From an uncultured virus (IMG/VR IMGVR_UViG_3300044796_000596) (Duplodnaviria > Heunggongvirae > Uroviricota > Caudoviricetes): 64,000 nt of DNA. Position numbers and translations under genes: made by a program. Every line of letters starts with the position of its first letter. The first letter of the stretch is position 1. The DNA lies in the IMG/VR virus record IMGVR_UViG_3300044796_000596. One strand, given 5' to 3'. Of the stretch, positions 8,865-30,549 are shown in pieces. The notes under the pieces are model-generated. The model made no database searches and was not told the origin of the DNA. It was given only the letters and a program-made list of their open reading frames with translations.

Positions 8865-8878
8865 TTCCACGTGAAACG
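8863..8878. promoter_or_regulatory. parS-like palindrome
   Basis: AGTTCCACGTGAAACG; inner 14 nt match the parS consensus TGTTNCACGTGAAACA; at a gene boundary. Confidence 0.4.
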
Positions 8879-11130: not shown

Positions 11131-11438
11131 GCTTTCGTTACAGTGTACCCGCTGCGCCCCATGACCTCGACCATCCATGTCTCGAACGTGGTGAGGGACC
11201 GATCCCCCTTCGTTGTGTTGCACAGATGATGAACGAAGGCGACGTTCCCAGGCGCGTGACGCCGAAGGATGCTCGGATCGAGGTGGTCCGAGTCGATCGC
11301 CGCCTTGCTCTGTTCTGCGAGGTCAAACTCATCAAAGTCGAGCGGAAGTTTGCAGATCGGACACCGGCCGACGTCTTTCCTCGGAACGGCAGGCAAGTAG
11401 CGCGCGATTGTCGCTGCGCACGCAGGCGCTCCACGCAT
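11127..11438 (-). CDS. HNH endonuclease, probably an N-terminally truncated restriction endonuclease
   Basis: CPIC...DSDHLDP...GNVAFVHHLCNTTKGDR; convergent with the MTase with overlapping stops; only 103 aa. Confidence 0.65.
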   Translation of the reverse strand: MRGAPACAATIARYLPAVPRKDVGRCPICKLPLDFDEFDLAEQSKAAIDSDHLDPSILRRHAPGNVAFVHHLCNTTKGDRSLTTFETWMVEVMGRSGYTVTKA

Positions 11439-11647: not shown

Positions 11648-11803
11648 GGCGACGTGGGCCGCCACGAGACAAGCGTAGCGAGGACGACGTGAAACGATCC
11701 CCATCCTGAGAATCCGCGAGAAACGTCCTGAGATTCCTACGGGCGAGATCGATGGGGAGGGGTGCCCTACCTATTTCGGGGTCTGCCTGATACGATCCCG
11801 AGC

Positions 11804-14800
11804 ATGCTCCGAGCCGAAGCCGACGGGCCCGACGCCGCTCCGACCGATCCGACCGATCCGACCGCCGTGCCTCGCTGGGCGTGGGGTGGCAAGCCAAGGG
11901 TCTTCGACGCGCTGGATCTCGACGGGGATGGGAAAGTATCCCGGGACGAGCTCGTGCACGCGATTGGACGGAACGTCCTCGAGGCGAGCCTCACCGACCT
12001 CACTCACCTGAGCCCCGAGGAGCACCTCGACGCCATCAACGCGGGCCGGCGCGAGGGCGCCAAGCTGCGGAGCGCCGTGGAGGGGCTCGGGAACGAGATC
12101 CTCAAGATGGGCGGCGGCAGGCCCCCCGCGTGGTGCACGGGTTTCGCGCCCCTTCTCGGGACGGGGGGAGATCCGACGATCCTCCGCGTGGGCTTCGCGC
12201 CGGGATCGAACCCGCCGCCGTTCCCCGCGCGGTACCGCGGCTTCCCGGTCCTGATGGTGGAGCGTCGGATCGACGGCGCCCTCGGCGAAGCGGGTGCGCC
12301 CGCCGCACCGCATGGGGAGGCGCCGCATGGGGAGGCGCCGCCTGCGGGTCCGCCGCACGCTGGTCCGCCGCCTGCGGGTCCGCCGCCTGCGGGTCCGTCG
12401 CCTGCCAAGACGAACATCGACGCTGTGCGTCCGCTCGCGCAGATGGGGACGGCGCCGACCCACCCGTTCACGCAGGCGCCGGGCGCCCCGTCGCCGAGGC
12501 CCGCGGGTGGCGGCAAGGTCGAGCCCTCGCCGTTCTTGAGCAGCCAGCCCGGAGCCGTGGGACAGAAGCCCGGAGCCCCGTCGCCGAGGCCCGCGGGTGG
12601 CGGCAAGGTCGAACCCTCGCCGTTTCTGAGCAGCCAGCCCGGAGCCGTGGGACAGAAGCCGGGCGCGCCGGGCGCTCCGTCGCCGAGGCCCGCGGGTGGC
12701 GGCAAGGTCGAGCCCTCGCCCGGAGCCCCGTCGCCGAGGCCCGCGGGTGGCGGCAGGGTCGAGCCCTCGCCCGGAGCCCCGTCGCCGAGGCCCGCGGGTG
12801 GCGGCAAGGTCGAACCCTCGCCGTTCCTGAGCAGCCAGCCCGGAGCCGTGGGACAGAAGCCGGGCGCGCCGGGCGCTCCGTCGCCGAGGCCCGCGGGTGG
12901 CGGCAAGGTCGAGCCCTCGCCCGGAGCCCCGTCGCCGAGGCCCGCGGGTGGCGGCAGGGTCGAGCCCTCGCCCGGAGCCCCGTCGCCGAGGCCCGCGGGT
13001 GGCGGCAAGGTCGAGCCCTCGGCACCGGCCCCTCGTCCTCGGCCGGGACAGCCTGCACCGCGCCCGGCCCCGCCGAACTCCCACGTCATTGGTCTCGGAG
13101 GTCGTGCCGGTCGTGTTCGGCAGCCGCCGCCGCCTCGGGAGCATGTCGCGGCTCCGTACGTGGTCGGTCTGCGTCCGGAGGTGCCGCGCGAGCGGGTCCT
13201 CATCGAGGGCGTGCAGCGCGATCCGTATCGCTACCGGACGGACGTCTTGCTCTACCGTCGCAACCCGCGCCGGTACGAGGAGCTCGAACGTCGAGGCTTC
13301 CTCCCCTCGCAGGTGTGGGAGCGGTACCGGACCCGTCCCGAGTACGTCTCGCTCGTCCGGGGCTGGGAGCCGGCGGAAGCAAACGAACTCCTCACGATGT
13401 TCGTGCGCCGACCTCGCGAGGCCCAGCGGCTCTATGGGCGCATGCGCCGCGAGCGCGCACAGCGTCTCGGCGAGCGGCGTCGCTCCCTGCTTCGCGGCCT
13501 TTTCACTCGCTGGACGGGGGCATGGTCGCCCGACTTCGCGCCGTACTTCGACGAGATGACGGCGGCGTACACGGTCGAGCAGAGGGCATCGCTCCGCCGT
13601 GCGATCGAGGCGCAGGACCAGGCGGGCGCCGAGGCGCTCCTCGCGCAGATCGAGGCCGAGACCGCCGCTGCCCAAGACGCGGAGGCGCAGGCCGCGCTTC
13701 AGGGGATGGTGCAGGAATCGACGACGGTGCAGGGCCAGAGCGGCGCGTACGCCGAGCTCGACCAGCCGGATCCTTCCGACCCGGACCCCTTCCCGGCCTT
13801 CGACGACAGCTCGCCTCCCGACGCGCCCCCGGATGCGCCGCCGCCGGATGCGCCGCCGCCGGATGCCGGTCCCCCGGATGCGCCCCCGGATGCGCCCCCG
13901 GATGGCGACGCGGGCGGGATCTACAACGGCCTCTACAACGGCCGCCGCCTGAACCTCGGTCGCGCCTCCAACGGAGCCTCCTCCAACGGAGCCTCCAACG
14001 GCGACGCGGGCTTTCCGTGGCTCGGTGCGGGGCTGCTCGGGCTCTTCGGCTACCTCGTGTACCAGACCTACAACACGGTCGATCGGGCGCGCGCCGCGGG
14101 CCAGCAGTTCCAGGCGGCGGTCGCGAAGGGCCTCACGGACGGGCAGATCGCGGAGTACGGGCCGAAGGTGTTCACGCGTCTCGGCGGCGAGGCGGGCCTT
14201 CAGCGGGTTCTCGCATCGCTCAACGCGTCCAGCGCGCCCAGCGCGTCCAGCGCGCCCGGCGCGTCCAGCGCGCCCAGCGCGTCCAACGCACCCGACGGGC
14301 GCGCGCCAGTGACGCTCACCGCCGAGCAGCAGATGCTCGCCGATGTCCTGAGCGGCAGGGTGCAGGCGGGCGAGCCGGGGAACCAGATCCGCGCGATGTT
14401 CAAGGACATGGGCGGCGTGCAGGGCTCGCGCAACCTCCTCGATGCGCTCTACGGTCGCGTCGCGACGGACGGCCTCACGCCCTTCGCGCAGCGCGTCGCG
14501 CGCGCGCTCAAGGGCAAGGTCGGGTCGGTCGCGCCGGCCCCGAAGGCCCCGGCGAAGCCGGGAGCCCCTGCCGCGAAGGTCGACGCGGGCGATCCCCCGG
14601 GACGGTTCGATCGGCTTACGGGCGTCCCCGCGGGCGCGCCGCGCATCGTTCGAGTCGAGTTCGTGCAGAGGCTCGACCCCTCGGGCAACGGCAACCGCTG
14701 GCGCATCTGGCTCGACAACGACGATGCGCGGACCGTCGATCGCTGGGGCGGCAAGCCGTGCGTCGGCGATTGCGAGCTCGTGGACGATGTGCCGATCACG

Positions 14801-17800
14801 GTCGGCGGAGAGACCGGCGATTTCGACGACATCGTCGAGTCGGAGCGGCGCAAGCTTCGAGGCACGTGGCTCGGGGATCGGATCGGGATCAAGCCCGTGG
14901 ACCCCACGATCCCGCTGCCCAAGCCGACGCCGCCGCCGACCGTGCTGAAGCCCGACACGGGCTTGCCGCTCGTCGGCGATCTGGGTGGCCTTCTCGGTGG
15001 CCGAGACCCGGCAGCGGTCTTCGAGTCGCTTTTTGGGGCTGCGACGCGCGCCCTGAGCGGTGTGCAGGGTGCGCAGGGTAGTGCGCCAAGTAGTGCACCG
15101 AGGCCCGGCTTGGTGCGGCTCCCGTCTGTGGCGAAGCCGCCTGTGGCGAAGCCGCCTGTGGCGAAGCCGCCTGTGGCGAAGCCGAAGCCGCCCGTCGCGA
15201 GGCCGCTCGTGGTGGCGAGGCCGCTCGTGGTGGCAAGGCCGTTTGTGGCGGTGGCGAAGCCTGTCGTGGCGAAGCCTGTCGTGGCGAAGCCTGTCGTGGC
15301 GAAACCCGACGAGCGATTCGTGCCGTCCGCGCCGGTGTTCGATAGCGACCAGCACGACACGTGGACGCAGTTGCCCTCGGGTGAGTGGAAGAGGGCGGGG
15401 GCCCCGGAGGAGCCCGAAACGGGTGACCTCGACGACCTCCGTGAGGTGCAGCGGCGCATTCTCCGAGACCTCACGATCCCGCCGCCGGCACCCCCGTTCA
15501 CCCCGCTGCTTCCGTTGCCCGCGCCTGCGCCTGCGCCGCTCGACAACGCCCGCGTGCTCGGGCTGGGCAAGGGCGGAGACGCGGGTGCGCCGACGACCTG
15601 GGCCTACGATCGGTACTACCTGGAGAGCAACGCGCCGGGCACGCCGTTCACCTTCGATCGCCGGGTCTTCGACGCCGTTCCCGAGGCTGAGGTCGCCGAG
15701 CGCGACCGACAGTTCCAGGAGGCCGAGAGTCAGAAGCGCCCGCGCCTGCGCGTGCTCGTGATGCGGACGCCGAGCGACAACGGGCTCGAGCACATCAACG
15801 TCTGGGACACGATGTTCGGCGACGGCATCCCCACGGCGAAGAACAGCGGTTCGTACGGGCGGCTCGACAAGCTGCTCGACAAGCCGTGGGATGAACGACT
15901 CGCTCTGCGCGATGCGGCTACGCGCGATGCGGCTACGCGCGATGCGGCTTCGCGTGACGCGGCTTCGCGCGAGGCAGGATCGGTCTCCGGGTCGGAGAGC
16001 GATCGGGCCGCCGCGATCGTCGAGGCGGCGAAGCCGTTCCTGGCCAAGCGCGGCATCTGGGTGTGCACCCCGGGGACAAGTTTCTTCGTGATGCCACGCT
16101 ACGCGGACCAGGCCACGGTGGTCCAAGCGTTCGCGGAGGCGTTCCCGAAGGAAGACGCCGTGGCGCTCGTGCGCTTCGTCGGGTTGGAGCAGGGCTGGAT
16201 CTTCGTTGCGACACAAGCGGTGGAGCGGGTGGAGCGGGTGGAGCGGCGCGAAACGCCGAACGTGGCGGCCTCTCCCGTGCTCGCAACGCTCGTGCGTACG
16301 CTGAACGATTGCGGTCGCCTCGCGATCCCGCGTGGAGGCATCGTTCCCGCGGACGTCTGCCTCGTCGGAGATGGCGCCGGCAAGAACCTCGACGAGAAGG
16401 TGGCCTCGGCGTTCGTGGACGTGTTCGGGCCGGAAATCGCGCTCGGCGCGTGGCAGCACGCGATCAACGCCGGGTGGCGCTTCGGGCAGAAGGTTCAGAG
16501 CGCCGGGGAGAGCGCAGGCGTCCTCGACGACACGGCGGACATCGCGATCCTGCTGCGTCTCCAGCCGTTTCTGAACCGCTACCCCGAGGGCGACGGAGTG
16601 AACGGAGTGACGAGGCGGGTGATCGGCGTGCCGCCCAACGGCGCGATGCCCGATCCGGAGAAGGTACTCGCGGTCATCGACACGGGCGCCGAGGCACCCG
16701 AGATCCGCTACGTCGCGGAGCGCGTGCTGCTTCGCGAGAGCCCGGACATGAAGGGGCGCGGCATCACCGAGCTCAGCCCGGGCAAGTCCGTGCGCGTGAT
16801 CGAGCACCGGACGAGCCCGGTGGGCGTGGACTGGCTGCGCGTCGACCCGAACATCGGCGGCGTGCAGGGATGGATCCAGGGCTTCTACACGAGCTTCATC
16901 GACGGCGCGCAGACCGACACCGGACGCGGCGGCGGCGGCGGCGGTGGTCACGGCGGCGGCGGCGGTGGTCACGGCGGCGGCGGTGGTCACGGCGGCGGCG
17001 GCGGCGGCTGGGGTGGGCGCGGGCGCGGGCGCGACGACTACTGGGGTGGCTGGGGCGGAGGCGGCGGCATCGGCTGGTTCGAGGAGGGTCCCCCGTACCC
17101 GCCGCCGTACCCGCTCGACGAGGACGAGGCAGGCGGTGTCGACACGGCACGCGGCGGGGGTCGCCGTGGCGGCGGCCGTGGCGGGCGCGGCTGGGGCTAC
17201 GGCGGTCGCGGCTACGGCTACGGCGGCGGCTACGGCGGCTACGGCTACGGCCCGTGGTGGTGGTACTCCAATCAGCCGCCCGTCTACGTGCTCGATCAGC
17301 GCGAGGAGAGCGACGAGGCAAACGACGAGGCAGGCGGGCCGGATCTCAAGGCCACGCTCCCGCCCGTGCTCCCGCCCGCGGCGGCGGACCACCAGGGCCC
17401 GGTGCTCCCGTGGCAGGGAACGGTCGCGGCCTTCAAGGCGCTCGACGTGAACGACGACGGGGTGGTGTCCCACCAGGAGCTGCACGAGGGGCTCGGCAAG
17501 ACCGGGGTCAAGCTCGCCCGCTACAACCTCCCCGCGCACCCGGAACCCCCGCAGGGGTCCGGTTACACGTGGTCGTCGGGCATGCGGTGGATCGTCTTCC
17601 CAGACCGCGAGGCGAAGGCCCGGTACATGGCGACCGCGGCCGTGCACGACTCGCACGACCCGCAGGTCCTCTCGTGGGCGAAGCAGTTCGAGGGCATCGA
17701 GGATCCGCTGGAGCGCGCGCAGGACATCCTGCGCTTCGCCCAACTCAACATCCGGTACGAGCACGATCCGGCCTGGTACGACGAGAACAATGAGCGGCAC

Positions 17801-18109
17801 GGCATCGAGCTGCTCGACTCCTCCGCGGTCGGCTTCGCCCGTGGCTACGGCGACTGCGACCTCAAGGCGAGGATCTTCGTCGCGCTCGCGCTGGCGTCGG
17901 GCCTCGAGGCAGAAATCTCTCCGGTGTTCACCGGCGAGAACGGCTTCCCCCACGTGCGCGCGCGGGTGAAGATCGGCGGACGCTGGCTCGTCGCCGACCC
18001 AACGATCGTCAACTCGGACATCGGTCGGCTCCCGATGCACCCGAAGGTGTACGTGAAAGACGATGGCGACGTGGGCCTCGCGCCCGGTGCGCCCGCGAAG
18101 GCAGCGTGA
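11804..18109 (+). CDS. Giant modular protein (about 2100 aa), putative virion polyprotein: EF-hand, Pro-rich repeats, TM helix, SH3b, Gly/Tyr/Trp-rich modules, second EF-hand, C-terminal transglutaminase-like (Cys-His-Asp) domain
   Basis: DLDGDGKVSRDE (11915-11950) and DVNDDGVVSHQE (17444-17479); FPWLGAGLLGLFGYLVY; LRESP...WLRV...GWI; GDCD (Cys 17855), FPHVRARV (His 17951), WLVADPT (Asp 17996). Confidence 0.85.
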   Translation: MLRAEADGPDAAPTDPTDPTAVPRWAWGGKPRVFDALDLDGDGKVSRDELVHAIGRNVLEASLTDLTHLSPEEHLDAINAGRREGAKLRSAVEGLGNEILKMGGGRPPAWCTGFAPLLGTGGDPTILRVGFAPGSNPPPFPARYRGFPVLMVERRIDGALGEAGAPAAPHGEAPHGEAPPAGPPHAGPPPAGPPPAGPSPAKTNIDAVRPLAQMGTAPTHPFTQAPGAPSPRPAGGGKVEPSPFLSSQPGAVGQKPGAPSPRPAGGGKVEPSPFLSSQPGAVGQKPGAPGAPSPRPAGGGKVEPSPGAPSPRPAGGGRVEPSPGAPSPRPAGGGKVEPSPFLSSQPGAVGQKPGAPGAPSPRPAGGGKVEPSPGAPSPRPAGGGRVEPSPGAPSPRPAGGGKVEPSAPAPRPRPGQPAPRPAPPNSHVIGLGGRAGRVRQPPPPREHVAAPYVVGLRPEVPRERVLIEGVQRDPYRYRTDVLLYRRNPRRYEELERRGFLPSQVWERYRTRPEYVSLVRGWEPAEANELLTMFVRRPREAQRLYGRMRRERAQRLGERRRSLLRGLFTRWTGAWSPDFAPYFDEMTAAYTVEQRASLRRAIEAQDQAGAEALLAQIEAETAAAQDAEAQAALQGMVQESTTVQGQSGAYAELDQPDPSDPDPFPAFDDSSPPDAPPDAPPPDAPPPDAGPPDAPPDAPPDGDAGGIYNGLYNGRRLNLGRASNGASSNGASNGDAGFPWLGAGLLGLFGYLVYQTYNTVDRARAAGQQFQAAVAKGLTDGQIAEYGPKVFTRLGGEAGLQRVLASLNASSAPSASSAPGASSAPSASNAPDGRAPVTLTAEQQMLADVLSGRVQAGEPGNQIRAMFKDMGGVQGSRNLLDALYGRVATDGLTPFAQRVARALKGKVGSVAPAPKAPAKPGAPAAKVDAGDPPGRFDRLTGVPAGAPRIVRVEFVQRLDPSGNGNRWRIWLDNDDARTVDRWGGKPCVGDCELVDDVPITVGGETGDFDDIVESERRKLRGTWLGDRIGIKPVDPTIPLPKPTPPPTVLKPDTGLPLVGDLGGLLGGRDPAAVFESLFGAATRALSGVQGAQGSAPSSAPRPGLVRLPSVAKPPVAKPPVAKPPVAKPKPPVARPLVVARPLVVARPFVAVAKPVVAKPVVAKPVVAKPDERFVPSAPVFDSDQHDTWTQLPSGEWKRAGAPEEPETGDLDDLREVQRRILRDLTIPPPAPPFTPLLPLPAPAPAPLDNARVLGLGKGGDAGAPTTWAYDRYYLESNAPGTPFTFDRRVFDAVPEAEVAERDRQFQEAESQKRPRLRVLVMRTPSDNGLEHINVWDTMFGDGIPTAKNSGSYGRLDKLLDKPWDERLALRDAATRDAATRDAASRDAASREAGSVSGSESDRAAAIVEAAKPFLAKRGIWVCTPGTSFFVMPRYADQATVVQAFAEAFPKEDAVALVRFVGLEQGWIFVATQAVERVERVERRETPNVAASPVLATLVRTLNDCGRLAIPRGGIVPADVCLVGDGAGKNLDEKVASAFVDVFGPEIALGAWQHAINAGWRFGQKVQSAGESAGVLDDTADIAILLRLQPFLNRYPEGDGVNGVTRRVIGVPPNGAMPDPEKVLAVIDTGAEAPEIRYVAERVLLRESPDMKGRGITELSPGKSVRVIEHRTSPVGVDWLRVDPNIGGVQGWIQGFYTSFIDGAQTDTGRGGGGGGGHGGGGGGHGGGGGHGGGGGGWGGRGRGRDDYWGGWGGGGGIGWFEEGPPYPPPYPLDEDEAGGVDTARGGGRRGGGRGGRGWGYGGRGYGYGGGYGGYGYGPWWWYSNQPPVYVLDQREESDEANDEAGGPDLKATLPPVLPPAAADHQGPVLPWQGTVAAFKALDVNDDGVVSHQELHEGLGKTGVKLARYNLPAHPEPPQGSGYTWSSGMRWIVFPDREAKARYMATAAVHDSHDPQVLSWAKQFEGIEDPLERAQDILRFAQLNIRYEHDPAWYDENNERHGIELLDSSAVGFARGYGDCDLKARIFVALALASGLEAEISPVFTGENGFPHVRARVKIGGRWLVADPTIVNSDIGRLPMHPKVYVKDDGDVGLAPGAPAKAA
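12479..13021 (+). repeat. Nested in-frame tandem repeats, 8 copies of APSPRPAGGG(K/R)VEPS
   Basis: Near-identical nucleotide copies, three followed by FLSSQPGAVGQKPG. Confidence 0.9.
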
Positions 18110-18110
18110 C

Positions 18111-20621
18111 ATGGCCTCCGTCGACGTCATCGTCTACGGGGTCGACCCGCAGGACGTTCCTGCCCTGATGGGCGGGGACGTCTTCGGGCGTCTTGTCGCG
18201 GATCGAGAGACGTGGGCGACGATGGCGCGGCAAACGCGCGAGGCGATCCTCTATCTCGGCCGCGTGCTGGGGAGAGGCACGGCCGGAGCGGCCGGCACGG
18301 CCGGCACGGCCGGTACGACGGCCGGCACGGTCACGTTCGTGGATCTCCGGAGCCCGGCGACGGTGCGGATCGCGCGCGCGCTCGCCGAGGGCCTCAAGCG
18401 CGATCTCACCGTTCAAGACGTGCCGATCCTCGCGATTGCCGGGCGCATCCTGCCAGGGTTTCATCCCGACGCGATCGATCAGGCGGTCGATCGAGCGATC
18501 GATCGAGCGATCGATCGAGCGGTCGACGGCGACACGGCACCGAATGCACCTTCGGAGTTCTTGTCACCCTTCGCACCCTTGAGGCCGATCGTACCGAACG
18601 TGCCGATGGTTCCGATGGCGCCGATCATGCCGATGGCTCCGATCATGCCGATCGTACCTGATGGTCACAGGCTCCGCGGTGAGGCTGGGGACGTGCTCGA
18701 CGACATCAAGGACTGGTTCGTTTCGCCCGAGGAGCGCCGACAAAACCGAGCGAAGCTCCGCAGGCTCTTCGAGGGCACCCCTCTCGAGAGACCCGTCGCG
18801 GATCTGTTCCCGCCGCCCGCCGCTCCCCCCGGGCCATCCGCGCCCTCGAGTCCGTCGTGGGTGACCGACGTGACCGACGTGACGACCTCGACGACCTCCA
18901 GGGGCCGGACGATGGCGAGCGTTCCGGCAAGCGTCCCGGCAAGCGTCCCGGCGAAGGCCCCGAGGACGAGGGCCCCGGCGTCGCTCGGCACCGGCGCGAA
19001 CATCCGTTCCTCCGACGATGACACGGGGAGCGACGAGGACGACGGGATGGAGGCGCGTGATGCGCAGCCACCGGATGCGCCGGATCCACCGGATGCGCCG
19101 GATGCGCCGGATGCGCCGGACGAGGAAGAGGAGAGGAACGAGGTCGCGACGATGGTGGGCACCTCGCTCCTCGGGCCTGCCGTTCTCGACAACGACATGC
19201 TCGGCGCGATCGTGAGCGCGATGGTGGCGCCGCGCATGACGGTCGCGCGCGCTGCGCTCAAGGAGCTCGGGGCCGACGTCGACGTGCGTGCCGTGAATCC
19301 GGCCGTGCTCGGGGTGATCCTCGTGCCTGCACAGCGCGAGGCGGCGAAGCTCGGGATGGAACTCCACAAGAGCCCGCGCGAGGTCGTGCGCGATGCTGGG
19401 ATTACGATCGGGCAGATCGTGCGCGCCGTGGGGGCGCTCCTCGCCGCACCGATCCAGGAAGCCTTCCACCTCGTGGCGCAGCGGATGGGCACCGATGCCC
19501 AGGGGAGGATCCAGGGGATCCTCGGCGATGCCTCGCGCGGGGACACGGGAGCCGCGGACGCGACGGACGCGACGGACGACAGGGGCGACGAGGGTACGGC
19601 GATTCCGTACATGGAGCAGCCCGAGATCCAGAAGCTCCTCGCGACCCTCCCGGCGGGTGAGCAACGTGACGGAGCCGTGAAGCTCCTCGTGGACGCCGAT
19701 TGGCCCGACGCGATGGTGCGGGACATCTTCGCGGCCGCGCCGCCCGAAGATCAAGCGGAAGCGGCCAAGGCCATGCTCGCGCTCTCGTTCGCGAAGCTCA
19801 TGAAGAACGCGCCTGGATGGCACCAGGTGCGCCGTCGTGCGTCGTCGCCTGCACCGCTCACGCCGCTCACGCCTACGCGACCTACGCGACCGCGATCCGC
19901 GAAGCCGGCACCGCCGCTCGCGCAGGCCCTCGTGCAGGCCGAGGACACGGGCGCCGCGACGGCGACGCCGATCGTCGAGGACACGCTCTACGTCGACGCG
20001 ACCGGCCGCCAGTGGGCAGGGTCGATGACGCCGGAAGGACGGTTTCAGTCGCGGGATTCGATCGACAAGCGAACGAGCAACGTGCAGATCGGGCACGCCT
20101 ACCGGATGGGTTCGATGGCCCCCGACGGATCGCCGACGGTGACGGTGGATCTCGGCGCCGTGCAGCCCGTCGCCGTGCTCCTCCCGAATGCCGGCGCCGT
20201 CCCGAACCTCACGGCTCCGAAGGCTCCCCCGTGGGGGCCGTACAAGCCCGGCGTCCACGTGTTCCTCGGCACCCGCTGGTACCAGGTGAGCGCCAACGGT
20301 CGACCGGAGGGCGCGCTCTCGCCGCAACCGCTGGCGCCCCCCGTGAACCAGCGCGCGGCCCTGATGAACGCCGCGAGGAGGGTGCCGCACGTGGCGGCGC
20401 ACAAGCTGCCGCCGCGACGGGTGCCCCCGAAGCATCCTCCGAAGCCTCCGAAGCACGCGCCCGCGCATGCCCGTGAGTCCGCGCCCCCCGCGAGCATGCT
20501 CCCGTCGCAGATCGCGAACACGGTCGAGACGGTCGGGACGGTGCTGAAGACGGGCATGGACATCGTGAAGACCGGCATGGACATCTTCTCCAACGCCAGC
20601 AGCATGTTCAGCGGGCTCTAG
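18111..20621 (+). CDS. Large modular hypothetical protein (putative virion polyprotein)
   Basis: ATG 1 nt after upstream stop; modules separated by low-complexity linkers ending EAG/DTG; C-terminal amphipathic helix. Confidence 0.75.
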   Translation: MASVDVIVYGVDPQDVPALMGGDVFGRLVADRETWATMARQTREAILYLGRVLGRGTAGAAGTAGTAGTTAGTVTFVDLRSPATVRIARALAEGLKRDLTVQDVPILAIAGRILPGFHPDAIDQAVDRAIDRAIDRAVDGDTAPNAPSEFLSPFAPLRPIVPNVPMVPMAPIMPMAPIMPIVPDGHRLRGEAGDVLDDIKDWFVSPEERRQNRAKLRRLFEGTPLERPVADLFPPPAAPPGPSAPSSPSWVTDVTDVTTSTTSRGRTMASVPASVPASVPAKAPRTRAPASLGTGANIRSSDDDTGSDEDDGMEARDAQPPDAPDPPDAPDAPDAPDEEEERNEVATMVGTSLLGPAVLDNDMLGAIVSAMVAPRMTVARAALKELGADVDVRAVNPAVLGVILVPAQREAAKLGMELHKSPREVVRDAGITIGQIVRAVGALLAAPIQEAFHLVAQRMGTDAQGRIQGILGDASRGDTGAADATDATDDRGDEGTAIPYMEQPEIQKLLATLPAGEQRDGAVKLLVDADWPDAMVRDIFAAAPPEDQAEAAKAMLALSFAKLMKNAPGWHQVRRRASSPAPLTPLTPTRPTRPRSAKPAPPLAQALVQAEDTGAATATPIVEDTLYVDATGRQWAGSMTPEGRFQSRDSIDKRTSNVQIGHAYRMGSMAPDGSPTVTVDLGAVQPVAVLLPNAGAVPNLTAPKAPPWGPYKPGVHVFLGTRWYQVSANGRPEGALSPQPLAPPVNQRAALMNAARRVPHVAAHKLPPRRVPPKHPPKPPKHAPAHARESAPPASMLPSQIANTVETVGTVLKTGMDIVKTGMDIFSNASSMFSGL

Positions 20622-20654
20622 GATTTTCGAGGATTTCGAGGAGATCGACGAGCC

Positions 20655-22394
20655 ATGGGTACCCTCATCGACGGCACGAGGCTCTTTCAGGGGTCGCGGG
20701 ACGCACGCGGCTTCAAGGATGGGGGGCCCGGCGTCCTGGACATTCCGTGGGTGAGCCAGATCCTAGCCGTCGTGGCGCTCGCGGCGACCGCCATCCAGAT
20801 CCTGTTCCAGCGGGGCTCGCTCGGTCATCTGTCGGCGCTCGATGCGGAGGAGTGGCTCGCGCTCTTCCGGATCGATCCAGGGATTCTCTTCAGTGGCCAG
20901 GGGAACCGGATCACGACCGAGCAAGCCGCGCGGTTCGTGCGGGCGCTCAAGATCGTCTCTGGCGAGCATCCGATGGACGACGCCTACCTCGCGAGCGTCG
21001 ACCCTCACGAGCCGCTCACCGACACGGCCTACCTCGCGGAGATCAGGAGCGCGGTGCAAGGTCCCGGTCCCGGTCCAGGTCCCGGTCCCGGTCCCGGTTC
21101 GCCGCAGAGCGCGCAGAGCGCGGGGGCAGGCGTTCCATCGGTCATCTCGCCGGAGACAGCGCAGCGGATCCTCGCGCTGCTCCGGCAAGGCGGCGTGCAG
21201 CGGATCGTGCAGGATCTGCTCCGTGAGTCCGACGAGCTCCGTCATAACCTCCCTGCCGTGCGGCGCGAGGTCGCCCGGCTGCGCGCGATCGCGGGGGAAA
21301 GCGACGACGCGACGGACGGCGGGACCGACGCGGGGAGCACGGGCGACGACGTCAAGAGGGGCGCGACGATCGTCACCGGCGCGGCAGGCGGCGCGGCGAC
21401 CATCGCCGCAGGCATCGCCGCTGCCGCCGTGAACGCGATCCCAGGGATCGGGCAGATCGCCTCCGGCGCGATCGCGGTCGGGATCGCCATCGCGAACGCG
21501 GTCATGTGGATCGTCGATGCGTCGAAGGACACGTTCCACGTGACGCCTTGGCAGGCCGTCATGCTGCTCGCGCTTTTCCGGATGGATCCGGGGCTCCTCT
21601 TCGCGGGCGTCAACAAGGCGACGACGCCGGAGCAGGCGGCGAGGCTCGTGCGGTGGCTCAAGATGATGTCGGGCGAGGTGAAGGTGAAGAAGGGCTGGGC
21701 CCTTCACAACCCGCGCGATCCAGGCGGCTACAGCCTTGAGTTCAACGCGTTCGGCAAGCACAACGTGCTGAACCCTTACGAGGCTCACGTCGATCCCAAC
21801 GATCCGCTCACGGACCCGAAGTTCATCCAGAAGATTCACGACGTCATCTGGGCGACGAAGAAGATCAAGAAGCACCACTGGTGGGGCGGCAACGACTACG
21901 TGGTCGACTACCAGAAGGCGCCGCCCGTCGTCACGACGCCCAAGAACGCGGAGAACATCCTCGGCGCGTTCCGGCTTGCGCTCAAGCACGCCCCCGACGT
22001 GCTCAAGTGGAGCGAGTTCAATAACCCCGGCGCGATGCACAGCTTGAACGTCGAGATCAAGCGCGTGCGTCGGCTCGCGGGCGAGCACGGCCCGGATCGC
22101 CTCCTGTCGCACTACTTCGGCGACGTGACGCTGCCTCCCGCGCCCGTGAAGCACGTGAGACACGGGGGACACGTGGGACACGGGGGACACGTGGGACACG
22201 GGGGACACGTGGGACACGGGGGACACGTGGGGCACTCGCCTCGCATGCCGCCCCCGCGACCTCTGCATGCACCGCAGGGACCGCAGGGACCAGGCAGGCT
22301 CGTTCCTGTGCCGCCGTCGGAGCCGCCCACGGAGCCGCCCACGACGGACCCAAACCCCGACGCCGATCCTCTCGAAATCGGCCTCGACACGTGA
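20655..22394 (+). CDS. Membrane-associated protein made of two paralogous domains
   Basis: LALFRIDPGILF...TTEQAARFVRALK..SGE...VDPHEPLTD repeated as LALFRMDPGLLF...TTPEQAARLVRWLK..SGE...VDPNDPLTD; a hydrophobic segment precedes each copy. Confidence 0.75.
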   Translation: MGTLIDGTRLFQGSRDARGFKDGGPGVLDIPWVSQILAVVALAATAIQILFQRGSLGHLSALDAEEWLALFRIDPGILFSGQGNRITTEQAARFVRALKIVSGEHPMDDAYLASVDPHEPLTDTAYLAEIRSAVQGPGPGPGPGPGPGSPQSAQSAGAGVPSVISPETAQRILALLRQGGVQRIVQDLLRESDELRHNLPAVRREVARLRAIAGESDDATDGGTDAGSTGDDVKRGATIVTGAAGGAATIAAGIAAAAVNAIPGIGQIASGAIAVGIAIANAVMWIVDASKDTFHVTPWQAVMLLALFRMDPGLLFAGVNKATTPEQAARLVRWLKMMSGEVKVKKGWALHNPRDPGGYSLEFNAFGKHNVLNPYEAHVDPNDPLTDPKFIQKIHDVIWATKKIKKHHWWGGNDYVVDYQKAPPVVTTPKNAENILGAFRLALKHAPDVLKWSEFNNPGAMHSLNVEIKRVRRLAGEHGPDRLLSHYFGDVTLPPAPVKHVRHGGHVGHGGHVGHGGHVGHGGHVGHSPRMPPPRPLHAPQGPQGPGRLVPVPPSEPPTEPPTTDPNPDADPLEIGLDT

Positions 22395-22403
22395 GAGGAC
22401 GCG

Positions 22404-22808
22404 ATGAAGGGCAACGGAGCGCCGAAAAAGGCATCGAAAAAGGCACCCAAGGCGGGCAAGAAGACGCCGAAGGGTACTCAAGGTACCAACGTAACGAACG
22501 CACCGAAGGTGGCGAACGCACCGAAGGTGGCGAACGCACCGAAGGTGGCGAACGCACCCAACGCACCCAAGAAGACCGGGTGGCAGAGGGCCCGTGCAGA
22601 ACAGCGGGCGGCCGACGAGAAGCAGGCTGACGTGCGCAAGGCCATCCGGGCGAAGGGGGGGCGGCCGCCCTCGCCTCCGAAGCTCTGCTCGAACTGCAAC
22701 GATCCGGGTCACACGCGGTCGACCTGCCCGAACCCAGGACCCGTGCGCACGTTCGACGACTACGATCGGATGGAGCGGACCGGGCGCCTCCCGAGATACG
22801 AGGACTGA
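22404..22808 (+). CDS. Basic Lys-rich protein with CCHC zinc knuckle (putative nucleic-acid-binding/core protein)
   Basis: GAGGA RBS; CSNCNDPGHTRSTC; NAPKVA repeats. Confidence 0.7.
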   Translation: MKGNGAPKKASKKAPKAGKKTPKGTQGTNVTNAPKVANAPKVANAPKVANAPNAPKKTGWQRARAEQRAADEKQADVRKAIRAKGGRPPSPPKLCSNCNDPGHTRSTCPNPGPVRTFDDYDRMERTGRLPRYED

Positions 22809-22838
22809 TCGATGGTCCCGATGGTGTACGATTCGCGC

Positions 22839-24986
22839 ATGTCCGACGACGCCCTTGCTCTCGTGGATGCGGATCCCGACGCGGAGGTGACGCGTGCCGA
22901 GCGCGTGCAGGATGCCTTTCTGGCGTACCTCGGGGACCGCGACCCGGATGTCCGTTCCTGGCTGAACGGCGTCGGGATCACGGTCGCCGGCTTCTCCGAC
23001 CTTTTGCGCCGAGGGCGCGTCACGGACGGCGAGATCGCGTGGCTTCGCCGGAACGCGCGGCCCGCGATCAAAATCGGCTACCTCCCAGGCAGGCTCCCCG
23101 CGGTGCTCGCGCCGTTCGCGCGCGGCCAGCGCTTCCTCGGACACGTGGTCGAGGTCGAGGAGTCGGCGCCCGCCGTGGCCCAGGGGGTTCGAGCAGACCG
23201 TTCCGATCGCTCCGATCGCTCCGATCCCTCCGATCCTTCCGATCCTGTCGCAGCGGTGCTCCAGCGGCTTGGGATGGGCGGCCCCGGCACGGCCGGGTTC
23301 ACGGGCCTCGTCGGTCTCATGCCGGGGCAGCGCTACCCCGAGGGAACCGCTGGAACCGCTGGAACGATCGAAAATTGCAGCGGCGACCCCGAGGTCGCGC
23401 GGCGCTTCGTCCGCGCGTTCGGTCGCGACGCGGGGATCGATCTCCTGAACCTTGCCCTCCGCCGCGGCTGGCGTTTTGTTCGCGTCCGCGCGCGCGCTGG
23501 CGCGGGTGCAGACGCGGGCGATGTCCTCGGAGACGGCAAGCAGTTCCTGAGGGACTACTTGAACGTGCTGACGTTCCGGCCGATCGCAGCCATGGAGAAG
23601 CAGGCGTTGCAGTACGTGCTCGCGGGCATCTGGCGTGCGGCCAATCCGCCGCCCAACGTGGTCGTCGAGTACAAGCGGCTCCTCGACGGTGGCTACCTGC
23701 CCGAGGGGCCGAGCGTCTACGCGTTCCAGCGGGCCTACAACGCTTCCCAGAACGCGAGCGTGCTCCCGGAGGACGGCATCGTCGGCCCGGCGACCGTCGC
23801 CGCGATGCGCGCCGTCGCGATGGGCACGATGGGCACGATGCCGGGTCGTACCGGCGAGACGGGAGCCCTCCTCGCCACGGTCGAGACCACCGATCCCTTC
23901 CGGCAGCTCCTCGATGTCATCCTCCGTCGGGTGCGCCCTGCGCAGCAGTACACGCGCATCGAGCCGCTTCGGGTGGGGAGCAAGGTCATCGACCTCGGCG
24001 ACGCCCCCTTGCACTTCGTGAACAGCTTCTCGGACTCGACCTTCCTCGGGATCAAGTTCGCCGGTCTCTGCGGCGGCATGGCGGCCACGACCCTCGACAA
24101 CTTCTACACGGGGACGCCGGCGCCGCTCATCGCGACGACCCCCTCCGTGCAGGACGACGCGCTCGGGAAGTACATCTACAGCCGGCAGGTGGACTCGCTC
24201 CTCGGCTGGCAGGGCGCCGAGTTCCTCGCGATGCTCCTCACGGCCGACGACGCGTCGCTCGCGCGCCAGACGGACGCCTCGTTCCGCGAGCTCGTGAGCG
24301 CGATCGACGAGGGCACGCCGGTGCCGATCGGGCTCATCCCTGCGCCGTACACGCTCGACATCACGAAGTTCACGAAGGCCCACCAGGTGGTCGCGCGGGG
24401 GTATGCCGTCGGCGAGGACGGGTCGAAGACGGTCTACCTGTGGGACTCGAACCGCCCGAACGATCTCGACACGGTGCTCGTCCAGGCCCCCGGCTCGACG
24501 CTCTGGATCGAGCCGGCCGCGCCCGGGAGCAGCGAGCACGCGTGGCGTGGGTGGTTCGTGGAGTCGGCGTACACGGCCAAGCAGCCGCCGGTGGCGAGCG
24601 GGAGCGCGAACGATGCGTTCTCGGTGCCGATCCTGAACGTGCCCGACCTAGCACCGGCGCGCGTTCCTGCGCGCGCTCCCGCTCCCGCTCCCGCGCCGGG
24701 TGCATCCCGTGCGATCAAGACGAGTGGGACGCTGGACAACGCTTTCGTGCTGGGGCTCGTCGATCCCTTGGGGCAGGCGGGTCCGGCGGTGAAAAACGCG
24801 GATGCGGGCGACGTGAGCGACGTCGGCGACGTCGGCTTCGTGCTGCGCAACGATCAGCGGCTCGCGGGCCTCGCCGGAACGCCCATGGGTCCTCCGTTCC
24901 GCTCTGCGCGTGGCCAGCGAGCGCTTCGGCGTAGGCCACGCGACAGCGATCCGTGGGGTCGGTCGTGGGTGGCGCCGGACCGTTGA
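22839..24986 (+). CDS. Modular protein with peptidoglycan-binding domain and papain-like (Cys-His-Asp) domain
   Basis: VYAFQRAY...EDGIVGPAT (PG-binding-1-like); GLCGGM (Cys 24069), HQVVARGY (His 24381), YLWDSN (Asp 24444). Confidence 0.75.
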   Translation: MSDDALALVDADPDAEVTRAERVQDAFLAYLGDRDPDVRSWLNGVGITVAGFSDLLRRGRVTDGEIAWLRRNARPAIKIGYLPGRLPAVLAPFARGQRFLGHVVEVEESAPAVAQGVRADRSDRSDRSDPSDPSDPVAAVLQRLGMGGPGTAGFTGLVGLMPGQRYPEGTAGTAGTIENCSGDPEVARRFVRAFGRDAGIDLLNLALRRGWRFVRVRARAGAGADAGDVLGDGKQFLRDYLNVLTFRPIAAMEKQALQYVLAGIWRAANPPPNVVVEYKRLLDGGYLPEGPSVYAFQRAYNASQNASVLPEDGIVGPATVAAMRAVAMGTMGTMPGRTGETGALLATVETTDPFRQLLDVILRRVRPAQQYTRIEPLRVGSKVIDLGDAPLHFVNSFSDSTFLGIKFAGLCGGMAATTLDNFYTGTPAPLIATTPSVQDDALGKYIYSRQVDSLLGWQGAEFLAMLLTADDASLARQTDASFRELVSAIDEGTPVPIGLIPAPYTLDITKFTKAHQVVARGYAVGEDGSKTVYLWDSNRPNDLDTVLVQAPGSTLWIEPAAPGSSEHAWRGWFVESAYTAKQPPVASGSANDAFSVPILNVPDLAPARVPARAPAPAPAPGASRAIKTSGTLDNAFVLGLVDPLGQAGPAVKNADAGDVSDVGDVGFVLRNDQRLAGLAGTPMGPPFRSARGQRALRRRPRDSDPWGRSWVAPDR

Positions 24987-25080
24987 GGCGGTCCAATTCA
25001 TCAAAATCGCAAAAAATCGCGGATCGCGTCGATCCCGAAAAATCGCCTGATTTGTCCTGAGGATGCTGTACGATCCTCGT

Positions 25081-26886
25081 ATGCTCGACAACAGCGCACG
25101 CCTGAACCCTGCACCAGAGACCAGCGTTTCGCGCGAGGTCGTGGACCTCGGAAGCGTCCGCGCGGGTCCGTGGTCGATCGCCGCAACGCTCGAGATCCCG
25201 AGCGATGGCGAGGAGGACAGCGACGCGAACGAGACGACCGGGGTCGATGGTGCGGTTGACAAGTCGTCGATCGAGAACGGGCTCGGAGAGATGCTGCGCC
25301 ACGTGGACGCGACGCACAGCGATCTCAACAAGATCCGGCACCAAGTGCACGAACTCGACGTACCGAGGTCGTCGCAGGCCGCCAAGACCAGCATCGAGGC
25401 GAGCCTCACGAACCTGCTCGCGGACGTCGACAAGACGCACAGCCAGATCAAGTCGGTCCAGAGCGCCTTCCACGCCCACACGGGCAAGGCGTCGGTCGAG
25501 AACGGGCTCGGAGAGATGCTGCGCCACGTGGACGCGACGCACAGCGATCTCAACAAGATCCGGCACCAAGTGCACGAACTCGACGTACCGAGGTCGTCGC
25601 AGGCCGCCAAGACCAGCATCGAGGCGAGCCTCACGAACCTGCTCGCGGACGTCGACAAGACGCACAGCCAGATCAAGTCGGTCCAGAGCGCCTTCCACGC
25701 GTTCGTGATGGGCGGCGGTGACGCGGGCTTCGCCGGCAACGTCGAGGACACGGACGCGGGCTGGATGGTGCTTCCGTTCTGGCACAACCGCTGGCGGGGT
25801 CGCTACGGCGAGCGCTACTGGGATCACCCGGAGTGGCGTCGTCGCTGGCACGCGATGGCGGACGTCATCGACACGGGCGGAGACACCGCCTACGGCGGCA
25901 TCGGCGGGAGCGGCTCGCGCTGGTCGGCCCCGCGCTACTTCCGCCGTGGGCCCTTGATGCGCGATCGCGCGCGCGGATGGAGCCGCGACTGGAGCTTCCG
26001 TCGTCCGCGCACCGAGTGGATCGAGTACGTCGAGGGCGGCGGGAGCCCGCTCCTCGCTGGCGTGTCGACGCGCGGCGGTGGCGCCGAAATCTGGGACGGC
26101 ATCCAGTGGGTCCCGAACGTCGAGGTGGAAGAGGTCGAGGTCGACAGCGGCGACACGGGCTGGATGGTGCTGCCTCACTGGCACGAGCGCTGGCGCGCGC
26201 GCTACGGCGATCGCTACTGGGATCACCCCGCGTGGCGCCGGCGCTGGTACGAGACGGCCGGGGTCGATGTCGCGACGGCCGACACCGGCTACGGCGGGAT
26301 CGGCGGCGGCGGCGGCGGCCGTGAGCGCTTCTTCCGGCACGACGGCCGAGGCATCGAGCACGCTGCTCTCCGTGGAGGCGTCGAGCACGCTGCGTTCGGT
26401 CGCGGGTTCGGGCGCGAGCGCGGTGGCGAACGCTTCGGCGGCGGTGAGCGCGAGCGGTTCGGGCGCGGCGGTGAGCGCGGGTACGTGAACGCCAACGTCC
26501 CGATCTTCCCCAACGGTCAATTCGATCCTGGCAGCGACGCGAACCATAGCCCGGCCACCCTGCAAGAGGGGGCGTCCGTCCGAATCGGCGCGCGCGCCTT
26601 GGCAAACGGACATCCGCTCACGCAGGTGACGATCCTGGCGGGTTCGACGGACGCCGGGCCGGCGAATGGGCAATCGTGGTGGGTACCCTCCGGCAACGTC
26701 CGGCGACAGCGGGGTGGCGATACCGGCGACGCAGCGCCCGCGCCTGCGCCCGCGCCCGCGCCTTCGCCGAAAGCCTCGGTGTGCCCCGTGCGAATCGGCA
26801 TCGGAGCCGTGGTCGGTGGCGTCGTCGGCGGGCCCATCGGAGCGGTCCTCGGCGGCGCGCTCGGAGCGGCTCTCGGCGCGGACTGA
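25081..26886 (+). CDS. Modular protein (putative polyprotein): duplicated coiled coil, duplicated Trp/Arg-rich modules, SH3-like domain, C-terminal glycine zipper
   Basis: 75-aa tandem duplication; WMVLPxWHxRW module twice; GAVVGGVVGGPIGAVLGGALGAALG. Confidence 0.75.
   Translation: MLDNSARLNPAPETSVSREVVDLGSVRAGPWSIAATLEIPSDGEEDSDANETTGVDGAVDKSSIENGLGEMLRHVDATHSDLNKIRHQVHELDVPRSSQAAKTSIEASLTNLLADVDKTHSQIKSVQSAFHAHTGKASVENGLGEMLRHVDATHSDLNKIRHQVHELDVPRSSQAAKTSIEASLTNLLADVDKTHSQIKSVQSAFHAFVMGGGDAGFAGNVEDTDAGWMVLPFWHNRWRGRYGERYWDHPEWRRRWHAMADVIDTGGDTAYGGIGGSGSRWSAPRYFRRGPLMRDRARGWSRDWSFRRPRTEWIEYVEGGGSPLLAGVSTRGGGAEIWDGIQWVPNVEVEEVEVDSGDTGWMVLPHWHERWRARYGDRYWDHPAWRRRWYETAGVDVATADTGYGGIGGGGGGRERFFRHDGRGIEHAALRGGVEHAAFGRGFGRERGGERFGGGERERFGRGGERGYVNANVPIFPNGQFDPGSDANHSPATLQEGASVRIGARALANGHPLTQVTILAGSTDAGPANGQSWWVPSGNVRRQRGGDTGDAAPAPAPAPAPSPKASVCPVRIGIGAVVGGVVGGPIGAVLGGALGAALGAD
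25271..25700 (+). repeat. Direct repeat, 2 x 205 nt, period 225 nt
   Basis: 25271-25475 matches 25496-25700. Confidence 0.9.
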
Positions 26887-27037
26887 CCCCGGGACAAGGC
26901 GAGCGTCCTCGACATGAAGCGATCCCCACGTCCCTCCACGTCCCTCCCACGTCCATCCCACGTCCATCCCACGGTTCATCCTCGTCCCCATCCTCGTTGA
27001 CGTTGGAGTGAGGTTCCGGGCTATTCTCCGCGGCGCC

Positions 27038-29886: not shown

Positions 29887-30549
29887 GTGACTGATACGCT
29901 CGACGTCATGTTCACGCCGGACGCCACCATCCTCGCGAAACACTTCACGCCCGGACGTCCCGAGCCCATCCGACTCGTCGTGATCCACACCACGGAGAAT
30001 GCTTGCGCGCTGCACGTCGCGCGCAACGTCGCGCTGTGGTTCGCGGGCGCGAGCGCGCCTCAGGCGAGCGCGCACTACGTCGTGGGCCCCGACGAGGTGA
30101 TCGCGTGCGTGCGCGAGGAGGACACCGCGTGGCAGGCGCCGCCCACCAACCCGTACGCGATCGGCGTCGAGCACGCGGCGCGCGCCGCCGACGAGATCGT
30201 GGACGGCAAGGTCGTCGCGAAAGCCTTCACGGCGGACGACTGGGCAGGCGACGCCGCGCAGGCGATGATCGCCAAGTCCGTCGAGCTCGTCGCGGATCTC
30301 TGCGTCCGGCACAACATTCCAGCCGTCTTCGTCGACAAGGACGGTCTCGTGCGCGGCGACGCGGGCATCACGACGCACATCACGATCTCCCACGCCTTCG
30401 GCAAGACGGACCACGTGGACCCGGGCCCGAACTTCCCGATCGACGACTACCTCGCGCGCGTCGCGGCGGCGGTCGCCGATCGGGCGGGGGGCGCGGCGAC
30501 GGATCCGGCGCCCGCTCCGACGGACCCGACCGATCCGACCGACGCCTGA
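29887..30549 (+). CDS. N-acetylmuramoyl-L-alanine amidase (Amidase_2), putative endolysin
   Basis: VVIHTTE, ASAHYVV, TAWQA, IGVE, ITTH, HVDPGPNFP. Confidence 0.9.
   Translation: MTDTLDVMFTPDATILAKHFTPGRPEPIRLVVIHTTENACALHVARNVALWFAGASAPQASAHYVVGPDEVIACVREEDTAWQAPPTNPYAIGVEHAARAADEIVDGKVVAKAFTADDWAGDAAQAMIAKSVELVADLCVRHNIPAVFVDKDGLVRGDAGITTHITISHAFGKTDHVDPGPNFPIDDYLARVAAAVADRAGGAATDPAPAPTDPTDPTDA

Follow-up and report, generated by a model that had tools for sequence, protein, structure and literature searches.

Five large proteins encoded by an uncultured virus of the class Caudoviricetes (IMG/VR record IMGVR_UViG_3300044796_000596) carry an excess of the tripeptide [DE][AT]G, which lies between unrelated protein cassettes and recurs at equivalent joints of homologous proteins. 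This pattern is real, replicated in relatives, and unexplained. From comparison of the sequences, we consider it plausible, though short of probable, that the [DE][AT]G joints are cleavage or processing sites in precursor proteins. The DNA analyzed, referred to here as the window, is a stretch of 64,000 nucleotides with ~69% G+C. Five co-oriented open reading frames (ORFs) lie head to tail on its plus strand and show a coding-type pattern of G+C content at the three codon positions (GC1/GC2/GC3). They encode P0001 (positions 11762..18109; 2115 amino acids [aa], likely ATG at 11804), P0002 (18063..20621; 852 aa), P0003 (20655..22394; 579 aa), P0004 (22812..24986; 724 aa), and P0005 (25063..26886; 607 aa). 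The intergenic gaps are short, and an alternative ATG of P0002, at 18111, is one base past the P0001 stop. The contig bearing P0004 is 174,839 bp long. The block is most likely an operon within a large GC-rich phage-like element, and its host probably belongs to the Myxococcota.

The junction tripeptide in the block and its homologues

The motif occurs 32 times in the 4877 aa of the five proteins: 15 times in P0001, a mosaic and mainly low-complexity chain, and 5, 1, 4, and 7 times in P0002 to P0005, respectively. These counts agree exactly with those given in a preliminary description of the DNA, and all 12 codon positions quoted there were recovered among the 15 of P0001 (starting at 12287, 13862, 13907, 14003, 14189, 14582, 14810, 14954, 15416, 15578, 15971, 16679, 16916, 17126, and 17327). 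Whole-protein shuffling yielded a mean of 10.96 occurrences (standard deviation, 3.2), and none of 2000 shuffles reached 32. Shuffling inside blocks of 10 to 50 aa gave means of 9.5 to 9.8, with a maximum of 22 in 1000 shuffles, and a first-order Markov model predicted 16.4 (Poisson P, 4e-4). When the three residue classes were put into their five other possible orders, counts were 6 to 19. DTG alone was found 10 times, versus 1.8 to 3.1 expected, and in no tandem array. Besides these five, the window has 52 called genes, which contained 20 occurrences in 13365 aa (23.6 expected). A sample of 248 ORFs (106,722 aa) along the chromosome of Minicystis rosea contained 181, versus 211 expected, and the disorder-like parts of that sample contained 84, versus 105 expected. 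We conclude that the motif is enriched in the block and is orientation-specific; the enrichment implied by the preliminary description is borne out relative to both shuffled proteins (32 versus ~11) and the other window genes (20 versus 23.6). The same description had allowed that the motif might be a generic linker of myxobacterial proteins. Since neither the other window genes nor the M. rosea sample has an excess, we conclude that it is not.

The block proteins are most likely mosaic, largely disordered, and built from shuffled cassettes. These cassettes are most likely EF-hands, SH3-like, PG_binding_1, and Gly-zipper/transmembrane modules, a tape-measure-like tail, RGG/AKP/Pro-rich repeats, and two Cys-His-Asp peptidase folds. 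In P0001, a module common to the homologue P0006 by BLASTP (residues 33-179), which holds the N-terminal EF-hand (residues 46-68, 11897..11965; Pfam EF-hand_5, E value 1.3e-10), ends at EAG 176-178. The P0001 SH3-like module (residues 1643-1721, 16688..16924) has DTG at both edges, and the C-terminal third of P0002 (19944..20618) starts directly after DTG 628-630. P0003 consists of two paralogous halves (residues 64-212 and 286-494; 20844-21290 and 21510-22136), each with a Gly-zipper-like hydrophobic segment and a domain, and its single motif, DAG at 21327 (residue 225), lies between them, as previously noted. P0005 has two Trp/Arg-rich modules, each directly after D[AT]G (25762 and 26161). 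The duplicated modules that had been listed as starting at the motif are all present, namely, DAG|WMVLPFWHNRW and DTG|WMVLPHWHERW; ETG|DFDD, ETG|DLDD, and EAG|DVLDD; DTG|RGGG and DTA|RGGG; and DTG|YGGIGG and DTA|YGGIGG. Four of the 15 P0001 sites fall within 8 aa of 8 homology-block edges common to P0006 (random P, 0.009), and 10 others fall in regions without a homologue. The dipeptide A-G, which would occupy positions P2-P1, is present in 19 of the 32 sites. At P0001 residues 751-770 (14012-14071), DAG precedes F and a hydrophobic stretch of ~20 residues (FPWLGAGLLGLFGYLVYQTY); this single case bears a faint likeness to a prepilin-type G|F processing site.

The excess recurs in relatives from outside the window. 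P0006 (1286 aa) has in common with P0001 the N-terminal EF-hand module, residues 1266-1367, the SH3-like module (1643-1721), Gly-rich segments, and a C-terminal unit of EF-hand plus transglutaminase fold that is 67% identical to that of P0001. Its intervening cassettes differ, and two LysM-like stretches are recognizable by eye. P0006 contains 8 motif sites versus 3.3 expected (P, 0.017). Its SH3-like counterpart (residues 665-740) has EAG at both edges, in place of the DTG in P0001, and different flanking modules. Eight multi-module relatives taken together contain 26 sites versus 10.9 expected (Poisson P, 7e-5). When 1.84 billion representatives were searched with a profile, 571 matches emerged, mostly free-standing proteins of 150 to 260 aa; among the 149 transglutaminase-family proteins listed, the 30 closest contain 22 sites versus 13 expected.

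We compared three joints across the short relatives P0007 (from M. rosea), P0014, P0016, P0022, and P0009. Joint (a), between two EF-hand modules, reads LLAG-EAG, LLAG-DTG, or LLAD-ETG. Joint (b), after the transglutaminase unit, reads GGQ-DAG, GGQ-EAG, GGG-EAG, or RER-ETG. Joint (c), where an MLPSQ tail passes into a Gly-zipper, reads EAG, EAG, and ETG in P0007, P0016, and P0009, respectively, in which the two sides are fused. All three joints keep the position of the motif while the class member varies (EAG/DTG/ETG). In the window, joint (c) is the boundary between P0002 and P0003 (20619..20657), which consists of a TAG stop, 11 in-frame codons with a GGAG ribosome-binding site, and the P0003 ATG. 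P0007 and P0016 have, in a single chain and in window order, the transglutaminase unit, the C-terminal part of P0002, and the P0003 domain, with only the MLPSQ tail of the P0002 part being supported in P0007 (BLAST/tblastn). Residues 718-851 of P0002 (20215-20615) match P0014 and P0016 (BLASTP), and the MLPSQ tail (20490-20618) matches P0007 (tblastn). In P0021, the fusion is limited to the transglutaminase unit and the P0003 domain; P0009 fuses the P0002 tail, the P0003 domain, and the P0004 papain-like domain. Read-through of the TAG codon from P0002 into P0003 was considered and rejected: TAG ends 15 of the 57 called genes, including those for the helicase and a methylase, and GGAG precedes the P0003 ATG.

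Homologues of the block proteins are rare. Of 401 Myxococcota genomes sampled, that of M. rosea alone contained the transglutaminase unit, which fits a mobile origin; P0004 and P0005 were not found in M. rosea. Searches of viral_contigs with P0003, P0004, and alignment A1 gave no match, as did a search of metagenome_contigs with alignment A1; a search of the latter with P0021 returned two short contigs and one weak locus only. PHROGs gave no match for 24 stand-alone transglutaminase-family members, the ESM Atlas gave nothing usable for the P0003 domain, and one search, covering proteins of 333 to 1063 aa, found no P0005 homologue.

Two built-in cysteine-peptidase folds

P0001 ends in an EF-hand and transglutaminase-fold unit (residues 1877-2115; 17390..18106, plus strand). 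The preliminary description had ended this protein in a transglutaminase-like domain with intact Cys, His, and Asp, and Pfam, alignments, AlphaFold2 (AF2), and Foldseek all agree with it. Residues 1972-2080 match Pfam PF01841 (Transglut_core) at 27.3 bits versus a cutoff of 23 (E value, 4.7e-6), and P0006 and P0007 also match this family. The catalytic codons lie at 17855-17857 (Cys2032), 17951-17953 (His2064), and 17996-17998 (Asp2079). All three residues are identical in a three-sequence alignment, and 93 sequences all retain the Cys and His; the third triad position is Asp in close relatives, and the wider alignment has the consensus GWxxAE. The AF2 model of the unit has a predicted local distance difference test (pLDDT) score of 87.8. 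Its top Foldseek matches are 3isr, 3kd4, Rad4, PNGase, TgpA, CPR-C4, LapG, and PeiP, with E values of 2e-4 to 1e-2. The BTLCP model gave no match, and Transglut_core was the only non-EF-hand Pfam match of P0001 at an E value of ≤0.01. No periplasmic export signal of the kind found in BTLCP/LapG is visible by eye, and the domain is the C terminus of a 2115-aa protein. In the short relatives, the transglutaminase unit itself has the motif on both flanks.

A domain of P0004 (23964-24590, plus strand) is predicted to be a second built-in cysteine-peptidase fold, of papain/C39-like type, and is newly recognized here. It follows a PG_binding_1-like stretch (residues 279-347; 23646-23852). Cys420 (24069-24071), His524 (24381-24383), and Asp545 (24444-24446) are invariant in six sequences. 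The PF13529 (C39_2) score of P0004 is below threshold (19 bits versus a cutoff of 24; E value, 0.0022), and the homologue P0010 carries a precomputed PF13529 match. The AF2 model (pLDDT, 62) has a papain-like topology, in which Cys66 precedes helix 67-79, strand 170-179 holds His170, and strand 185-191 ends at Asp191. Below the best VIA-align match, which is considered in the next section, the remaining top rows (Z, ~6 to 7.5) belong to papain-like cysteine peptidases, among them streptopain (7.5) and the C39-like 3erv (6.5); a lower row is the double-glycine protease 6mpz (5.8). No ABC transporter domain that might partner a C39 peptidase was found among the 51 window proteins scanned.

Possible processing at the joints and competing explanations

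In the reading that we favor, the five chains would be precursors that give rise to virion or ejected proteins with a role at the host envelope, and the [DE][AT]G tripeptides between cassettes would serve for processing, with the cut probably following Gly. Processing is the simplest reading of the tripeptide because it is independent of fold, orientation-specific, conserved as a class, situated between cassettes, and in one instance supplanted by a gene boundary. Cleavage would fall to one of the cysteine peptidases that the proteins themselves carry, with the EF-hand-linked transglutaminase-fold unit as the leading candidate. This unit is flanked by the motif on both sides in the short relatives and also occurs as free-standing proteins of 150 to 260 aa. 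The adjoining EF-hand suggests gating by Ca2+, such that the enzyme would be activated outside the low-Ca cytoplasm. Proteolysis, like virion association and Ca gating, is our inference from these patterns, and so are the identity of the enzyme and that of the scissile bond.

A role of the block in virion tail or ejection proteins acting on the envelope is weakly suggested by several features. None of the five proteins has an obvious N-terminal signal peptide (translations inspected by eye, without a predictor). They contain wall-binding modules, hydrophobic Gly-zipper segments (one of them at the P0005 C terminus, 26821-26883), and basic RGG, AKP, and Arg-rich stretches, and serpin and endolysin genes lie nearby. 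In M. rosea, the P0007 gene is directly upstream of a Phage_GPD baseplate hub gene (Phage_GPD E value, 2e-57), and the MLPSQ segment of P0007 (residues 517-564) has a weak tape-measure match (phrog_58; E value, 0.0056). P0005 likewise has a weak tape-measure match (phrog_1535; E value, 0.0086). A tblastn search of the window with the M. rosea hub protein found no baseplate hub. In its fullest form, our reading is that these are true phage polyproteins: a self-excising, EF-hand (Ca2+)-gated transglutaminase-fold protease, perhaps helped by the papain/C39-like one, would cut five precursors after Gly at up to 32 joints and release small DNA-binding, membrane-active, and wall-binding virion or ejection proteins, and cassettes would have been added by insertion between two copies of the motif. 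We regard this full scheme as doubtful.

Several findings weigh against processing. In an unbiased scan of all tripeptides made of one- or two-residue classes (187,930 ranked), the best motif in shuffled sequence reached a z of 6.2 ± 0.5, and unmasked [DE][AT]G has a z of ~6.4. Hence, a motif chosen by eye could reach such a value by chance, and the window cannot settle the matter by itself. When repeated 5-mers were harshly masked, a count of 22 and a z of 4.6 (rank 397 of 187,930) remained, with the loss of 10 genuine sites too. Some sites are inside modules (P0004 residue 206; AID[AE]G is conserved within the papain-like domain), D/E, A/T, and G are typical linker residues, and the predicted cleavage products include pieces of only 11 to 32 aa. 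The expectation that homologues would keep the motif at module boundaries held in part: the three joints described above retain it with varying class members, whereas P0021 lacks it at the two joints that it shares, (b) and (c), and the P0004 homologues P0009 to P0011 have 2, 1, and 1 sites versus 1.2 to 1.3 expected, which is chance level. P0009 also has no motif between its P0003-like and P0004-like parts, and the 149 listed transglutaminase-family proteins as a whole have no excess (69 sites versus 84 expected). The structural matches of the transglutaminase fold are generic (template modeling [TM] scores of 0.3 to 0.44) and include true transglutaminases. For the P0004 domain, VIA-align ranks the C-terminal domain of BtaeB, a type VI secretion effector, first (Z, 9.5). 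Both peptidase folds accompany peptidoglycan-binding modules (the two LysM-like stretches of P0006, SH3-like modules, and PG_binding_1), so they may attack the cell wall instead of cutting polyproteins. Finally, none of the 51 window proteins scanned was recognized as a member of a capsid, portal, terminase, tail, or prohead-protease family.

A serious alternative, which we rate slightly below processing, is that the motif is a preferred flexible linker in intact tail, tape-measure, or ejection proteins and that both enzymes are virion-associated cell-wall peptidases that help breach the envelope. The tripeptide would then simply be the joint of acidic and small residues favored between cassettes by this lineage. 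The PG_binding_1-like stretch of P0004, the LysM-like and SH3-like modules of P0006 and P0001, and the lack of visible signal peptides fit such proteins, as do the hub gene beside P0007, the weak tape-measure matches of P0007 and P0005, and the endolysin gene after the block. So do the type VI effector match of the P0004 domain, the presence of phage pseudomurein endoisopeptidases with a transglutaminase fold among the structural matches, and the partial use of the motif by homologues. However, a plain linker needs no fixed order of residue classes, and the five permuted orders are not enriched; nor do the disorder-like segments of M. rosea have an excess. The class-preserving substitutions at three joints suggest selection on the tripeptide itself, and since one genome has a gene boundary at one joint, the parts on either side would seem to act as separate chains.

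We consider it improbable that the excess is a by-product of repeat-driven evolution, that is, of slippage-prone GC-rich codon repeats (GAC-GCG/ACG-GGC), recent duplications, and post hoc choice of the motif. The 15-kb block does have 76 tandem-repeat rows, including the Pro/Gly/Lys/Gln-rich repeats of P0001 (GGGKVEPSP...; 12478..13021, from a tandem-repeat scan and the translation), and in-frame tandem duplications with 99% identity of 201 bp in P0001 (12568-13021) and 225 bp in P0005 (25260-25700). Peptides rich in D[AT] that resemble microsatellites (PDAP, RDAA, DATD, and DVTD) are present, and the effect of the 5-mer mask (22 sites; z, 4.6) and the z of ~6.2 reached by the all-motif null are in line with this explanation. 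Nevertheless, local-block shuffles, which keep local composition, still give only ~9.6 occurrences, DTG exceeds expectation (10 versus 1.8 to 3.1) outside any tandem array, third codon positions vary at the sites, and the motif recurs at homologous joints of independent homologues.

Even less probable is a role of the transglutaminase-fold domain as a Ca2+-dependent cross-linker that joins Gln/Lys-rich Pro/Gly repeats into a covalent matrix or shell, with the motif unrelated: an EF-hand adjoins the intact Cys-His-Asp core, the P0001 repeats are K/Q/P/G-rich (GGGKVEPSPFLSSQPGAVGQKPG, AKP repeats, Gly loops), and true transglutaminases (4xz7, 1g0d, and factor XIII) are among the fold matches, but these matches are no better than those to proteases, PNGase, and Rad4, bacterial Transglut_core proteins are mostly regarded as peptidases, and the junction motif, the second peptidase fold, and the gene fission would be left unexplained.

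Four further candidates were set aside. 2A-like skipping does not fit, with Pro at +1 in only 2 of the 32 sites. A DNA-level signal is unlikely, as third codon positions differ among the sites (no formal frame test was made). The site contexts fit none of the sortase LPxTG, RTX GGxGxD, and EF-hand loop registers. The serpin encoded downstream of the block is not a bait for the putative motif protease, its inferred P1 residue being Arg rather than part of [DE][AT]G.

By analogy, the block appears to work most like the polyvalent proteins or like MARTX-type autoprocessing, yet it fails defining features of both. Polyvalent proteins of phages and conjugative elements (Iyer et al. 2017; PMC5512222) are very large and strongly mosaic, have 2 to 15 domains, and carry an embedded peptidase that is predicted to cut them; their packaging or injection is likewise predicted. 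Like them, the block has many unrelated domains per chain, and modules are shuffled among P0001, P0006, P0007, P0009, P0016, and P0021. In the text of PMC5512222, however, the polyvalent proteins have zincin-like metallopeptidases and anti-restriction or nucleic-acid enzymes, for which the five block proteins have no Pfam or PHROG match, and the terms "transglutaminase" and "papain-like" are absent. Unlike the polyvalent proteins, the block has EF-hands, wall-binding modules, membrane segments, low-complexity repeats, Cys-His-Asp peptidase candidates, and a readable junction tripeptide.

MARTX toxins are giant modular proteins whose own cysteine protease cuts inter-module linkers on a small-molecule cue, an analogy to the putative Ca2+ gating, and they are secreted bacterial toxins active in eukaryotic cells. 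Their cleavage is after Leu and is triggered by inositol hexakisphosphate (InsP6). Unlike MARTX, the block has no Peptidase_C80 and no RTX repeats by Pfam, and GG[DE][AT]GD is off the GGxGxD register as the RTX consensus is generally given. African swine fever virus (ASFV) pS273R (GG|X), poxvirus I7 (AG|X), and the adenovirus protease cut virion precursors after Gly at short motifs. These enzymes belong to another protease clan (adenain/Ulp1-like), which has no Pfam or fold match in the block, and their hosts are eukaryotes. Among phages, tape-measure and tail proteins with embedded lytic domains are known, as are pseudomurein endoisopeptidases with a transglutaminase fold. The block resembles these phage proteins in having PeiP and PeiR as fold matches, a virus-encoded transglutaminase fold, and an M. 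rosea homologue upstream of a hub gene. Unlike tape-measure proteins, it is mostly Pro/Gly-rich low-complexity sequence and not long helices, and its PHROG matches are weak (E values, 0.006 to 0.009).

A transglutaminase fold can indeed be a protease, as the preliminary description had stated: LapG is a transglutaminase-like, Ca-dependent Cys protease that cuts a giant repeat protein at a small-residue pair, di-alanine (PMC10990149). LapG is periplasmic and acts at one site in one adhesin, whereas the Ca site of the block unit would be a separate EF-hand and candidate sites are many; LapG ranks 23rd among the fold matches of the P0001 unit, with a TM score of 0.36. In giant phages, a short motif recurs at the sites where prohead proteases (SPN3US gp245 and phiKZ gp175) trim numerous head and ejection proteins, and one propeptide may be cut several times (PMC10052503). 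That processing, in the same account, uses a dedicated prohead protease, acts mainly by removing N-terminal propeptides, and has sites that end in Glu (such as E-124 and ARE-12); no such protease was recognized in this window. Among the entries listed, titles and the beginnings of abstracts on myxophages and on transglutaminase-like cysteine proteases of bacteriophage virions contained no description of a system like the one considered here, and the terms "jumbo," "transglutaminase," "polyprotein," and "protease" are absent from one 2026 preprint.

Surroundings of the block and significance

Between P0003 and P0004 lies a gene for a basic 134-aa protein (22404..22808, plus strand) that is Lys/Ala/Pro-rich, with AKP/ANAPKV repeats and a C-terminal CX2CX4HX4C zinc knuckle; it looks like a nucleic-acid-binding protein. 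P0004 (22821-22856) and P0005 (25063-25098) start with a common peptide, M[VL]YD[SP]RM[SL]D, which has only these two matches in the six frames of the window and could be a targeting or regulatory signal. The A-rich spacer 5′ of P0005 (24987-25062) contains three copies of AAAATCGC, and the spacer 5′ of the serpin gene (26887-27007) contains four to five tandem copies of CCACGTCC[CA]T; both sets of repeats are possible regulatory sites.

Directly downstream of the block is a full-length, inhibitory-type serpin (27008..28318, plus strand; Pfam Serpin E value, 2.5e-92), with a canonical inhibitory hinge (GTEAAAATA), an inferred P1 Arg (MHTR|GIS), and no visible signal peptide. A serpin within a phage-like element is unusual. 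It may shield disordered proteins from trypsin-like host proteases. A lysis gene, for an Amidase_2 endolysin, follows (29887..30549, plus strand). Other phage-like content of the window includes a phrog_16 helicase, DNA methyltransferases, DUF5131, and DUF1643, and further genes encode a DHH phosphoesterase, NDK, and a CarS-type SH3 protein. Directly upstream of the block (6431-11438) are a TnpB/IS605 OrfB gene, an N6 DNA methylase gene (8899-11130), and a minus-strand DraIII/HNH-like fragment; these genes may be an insertion that parts the block from its original neighbors. Codon-level microsatellites (poly-Pro, GAS, EH, and KSGT runs) are present in other window genes as well, and the genome seems prone to repeat expansion. 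No tRNA was found in the window, and no similar phage record was found by megablast of positions 1-25000 or by tblastn of the transglutaminase unit.

In M. rosea, the fused P0007 gene belongs to a six-gene island (L001, 3842-13831), which also encodes a 565-aa protein of no assigned function, a 442-aa P-loop ATPase, the 669-aa low-complexity protein P0008, the 317-aa Phage_GPD hub, and a 128-aa ORF and which is flanked by ordinary chromosomal genes. It may be what is left of a prophage or tailocin.

If the joints are cut, a cleavage code for multidomain precursors of phages, whose autoprocessing has to date been a prediction, could be read from the block, and the transglutaminase fold would have gained a new job in a virus. 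Cassette insertion would then be a route to new virion or ejected proteins, and ~30 mapped sites and two candidate enzymes would be at hand for test-tube work. If the joints are not cut, the block would still be an unusual envelope-targeting mosaic set from poorly known large GC-rich phages.

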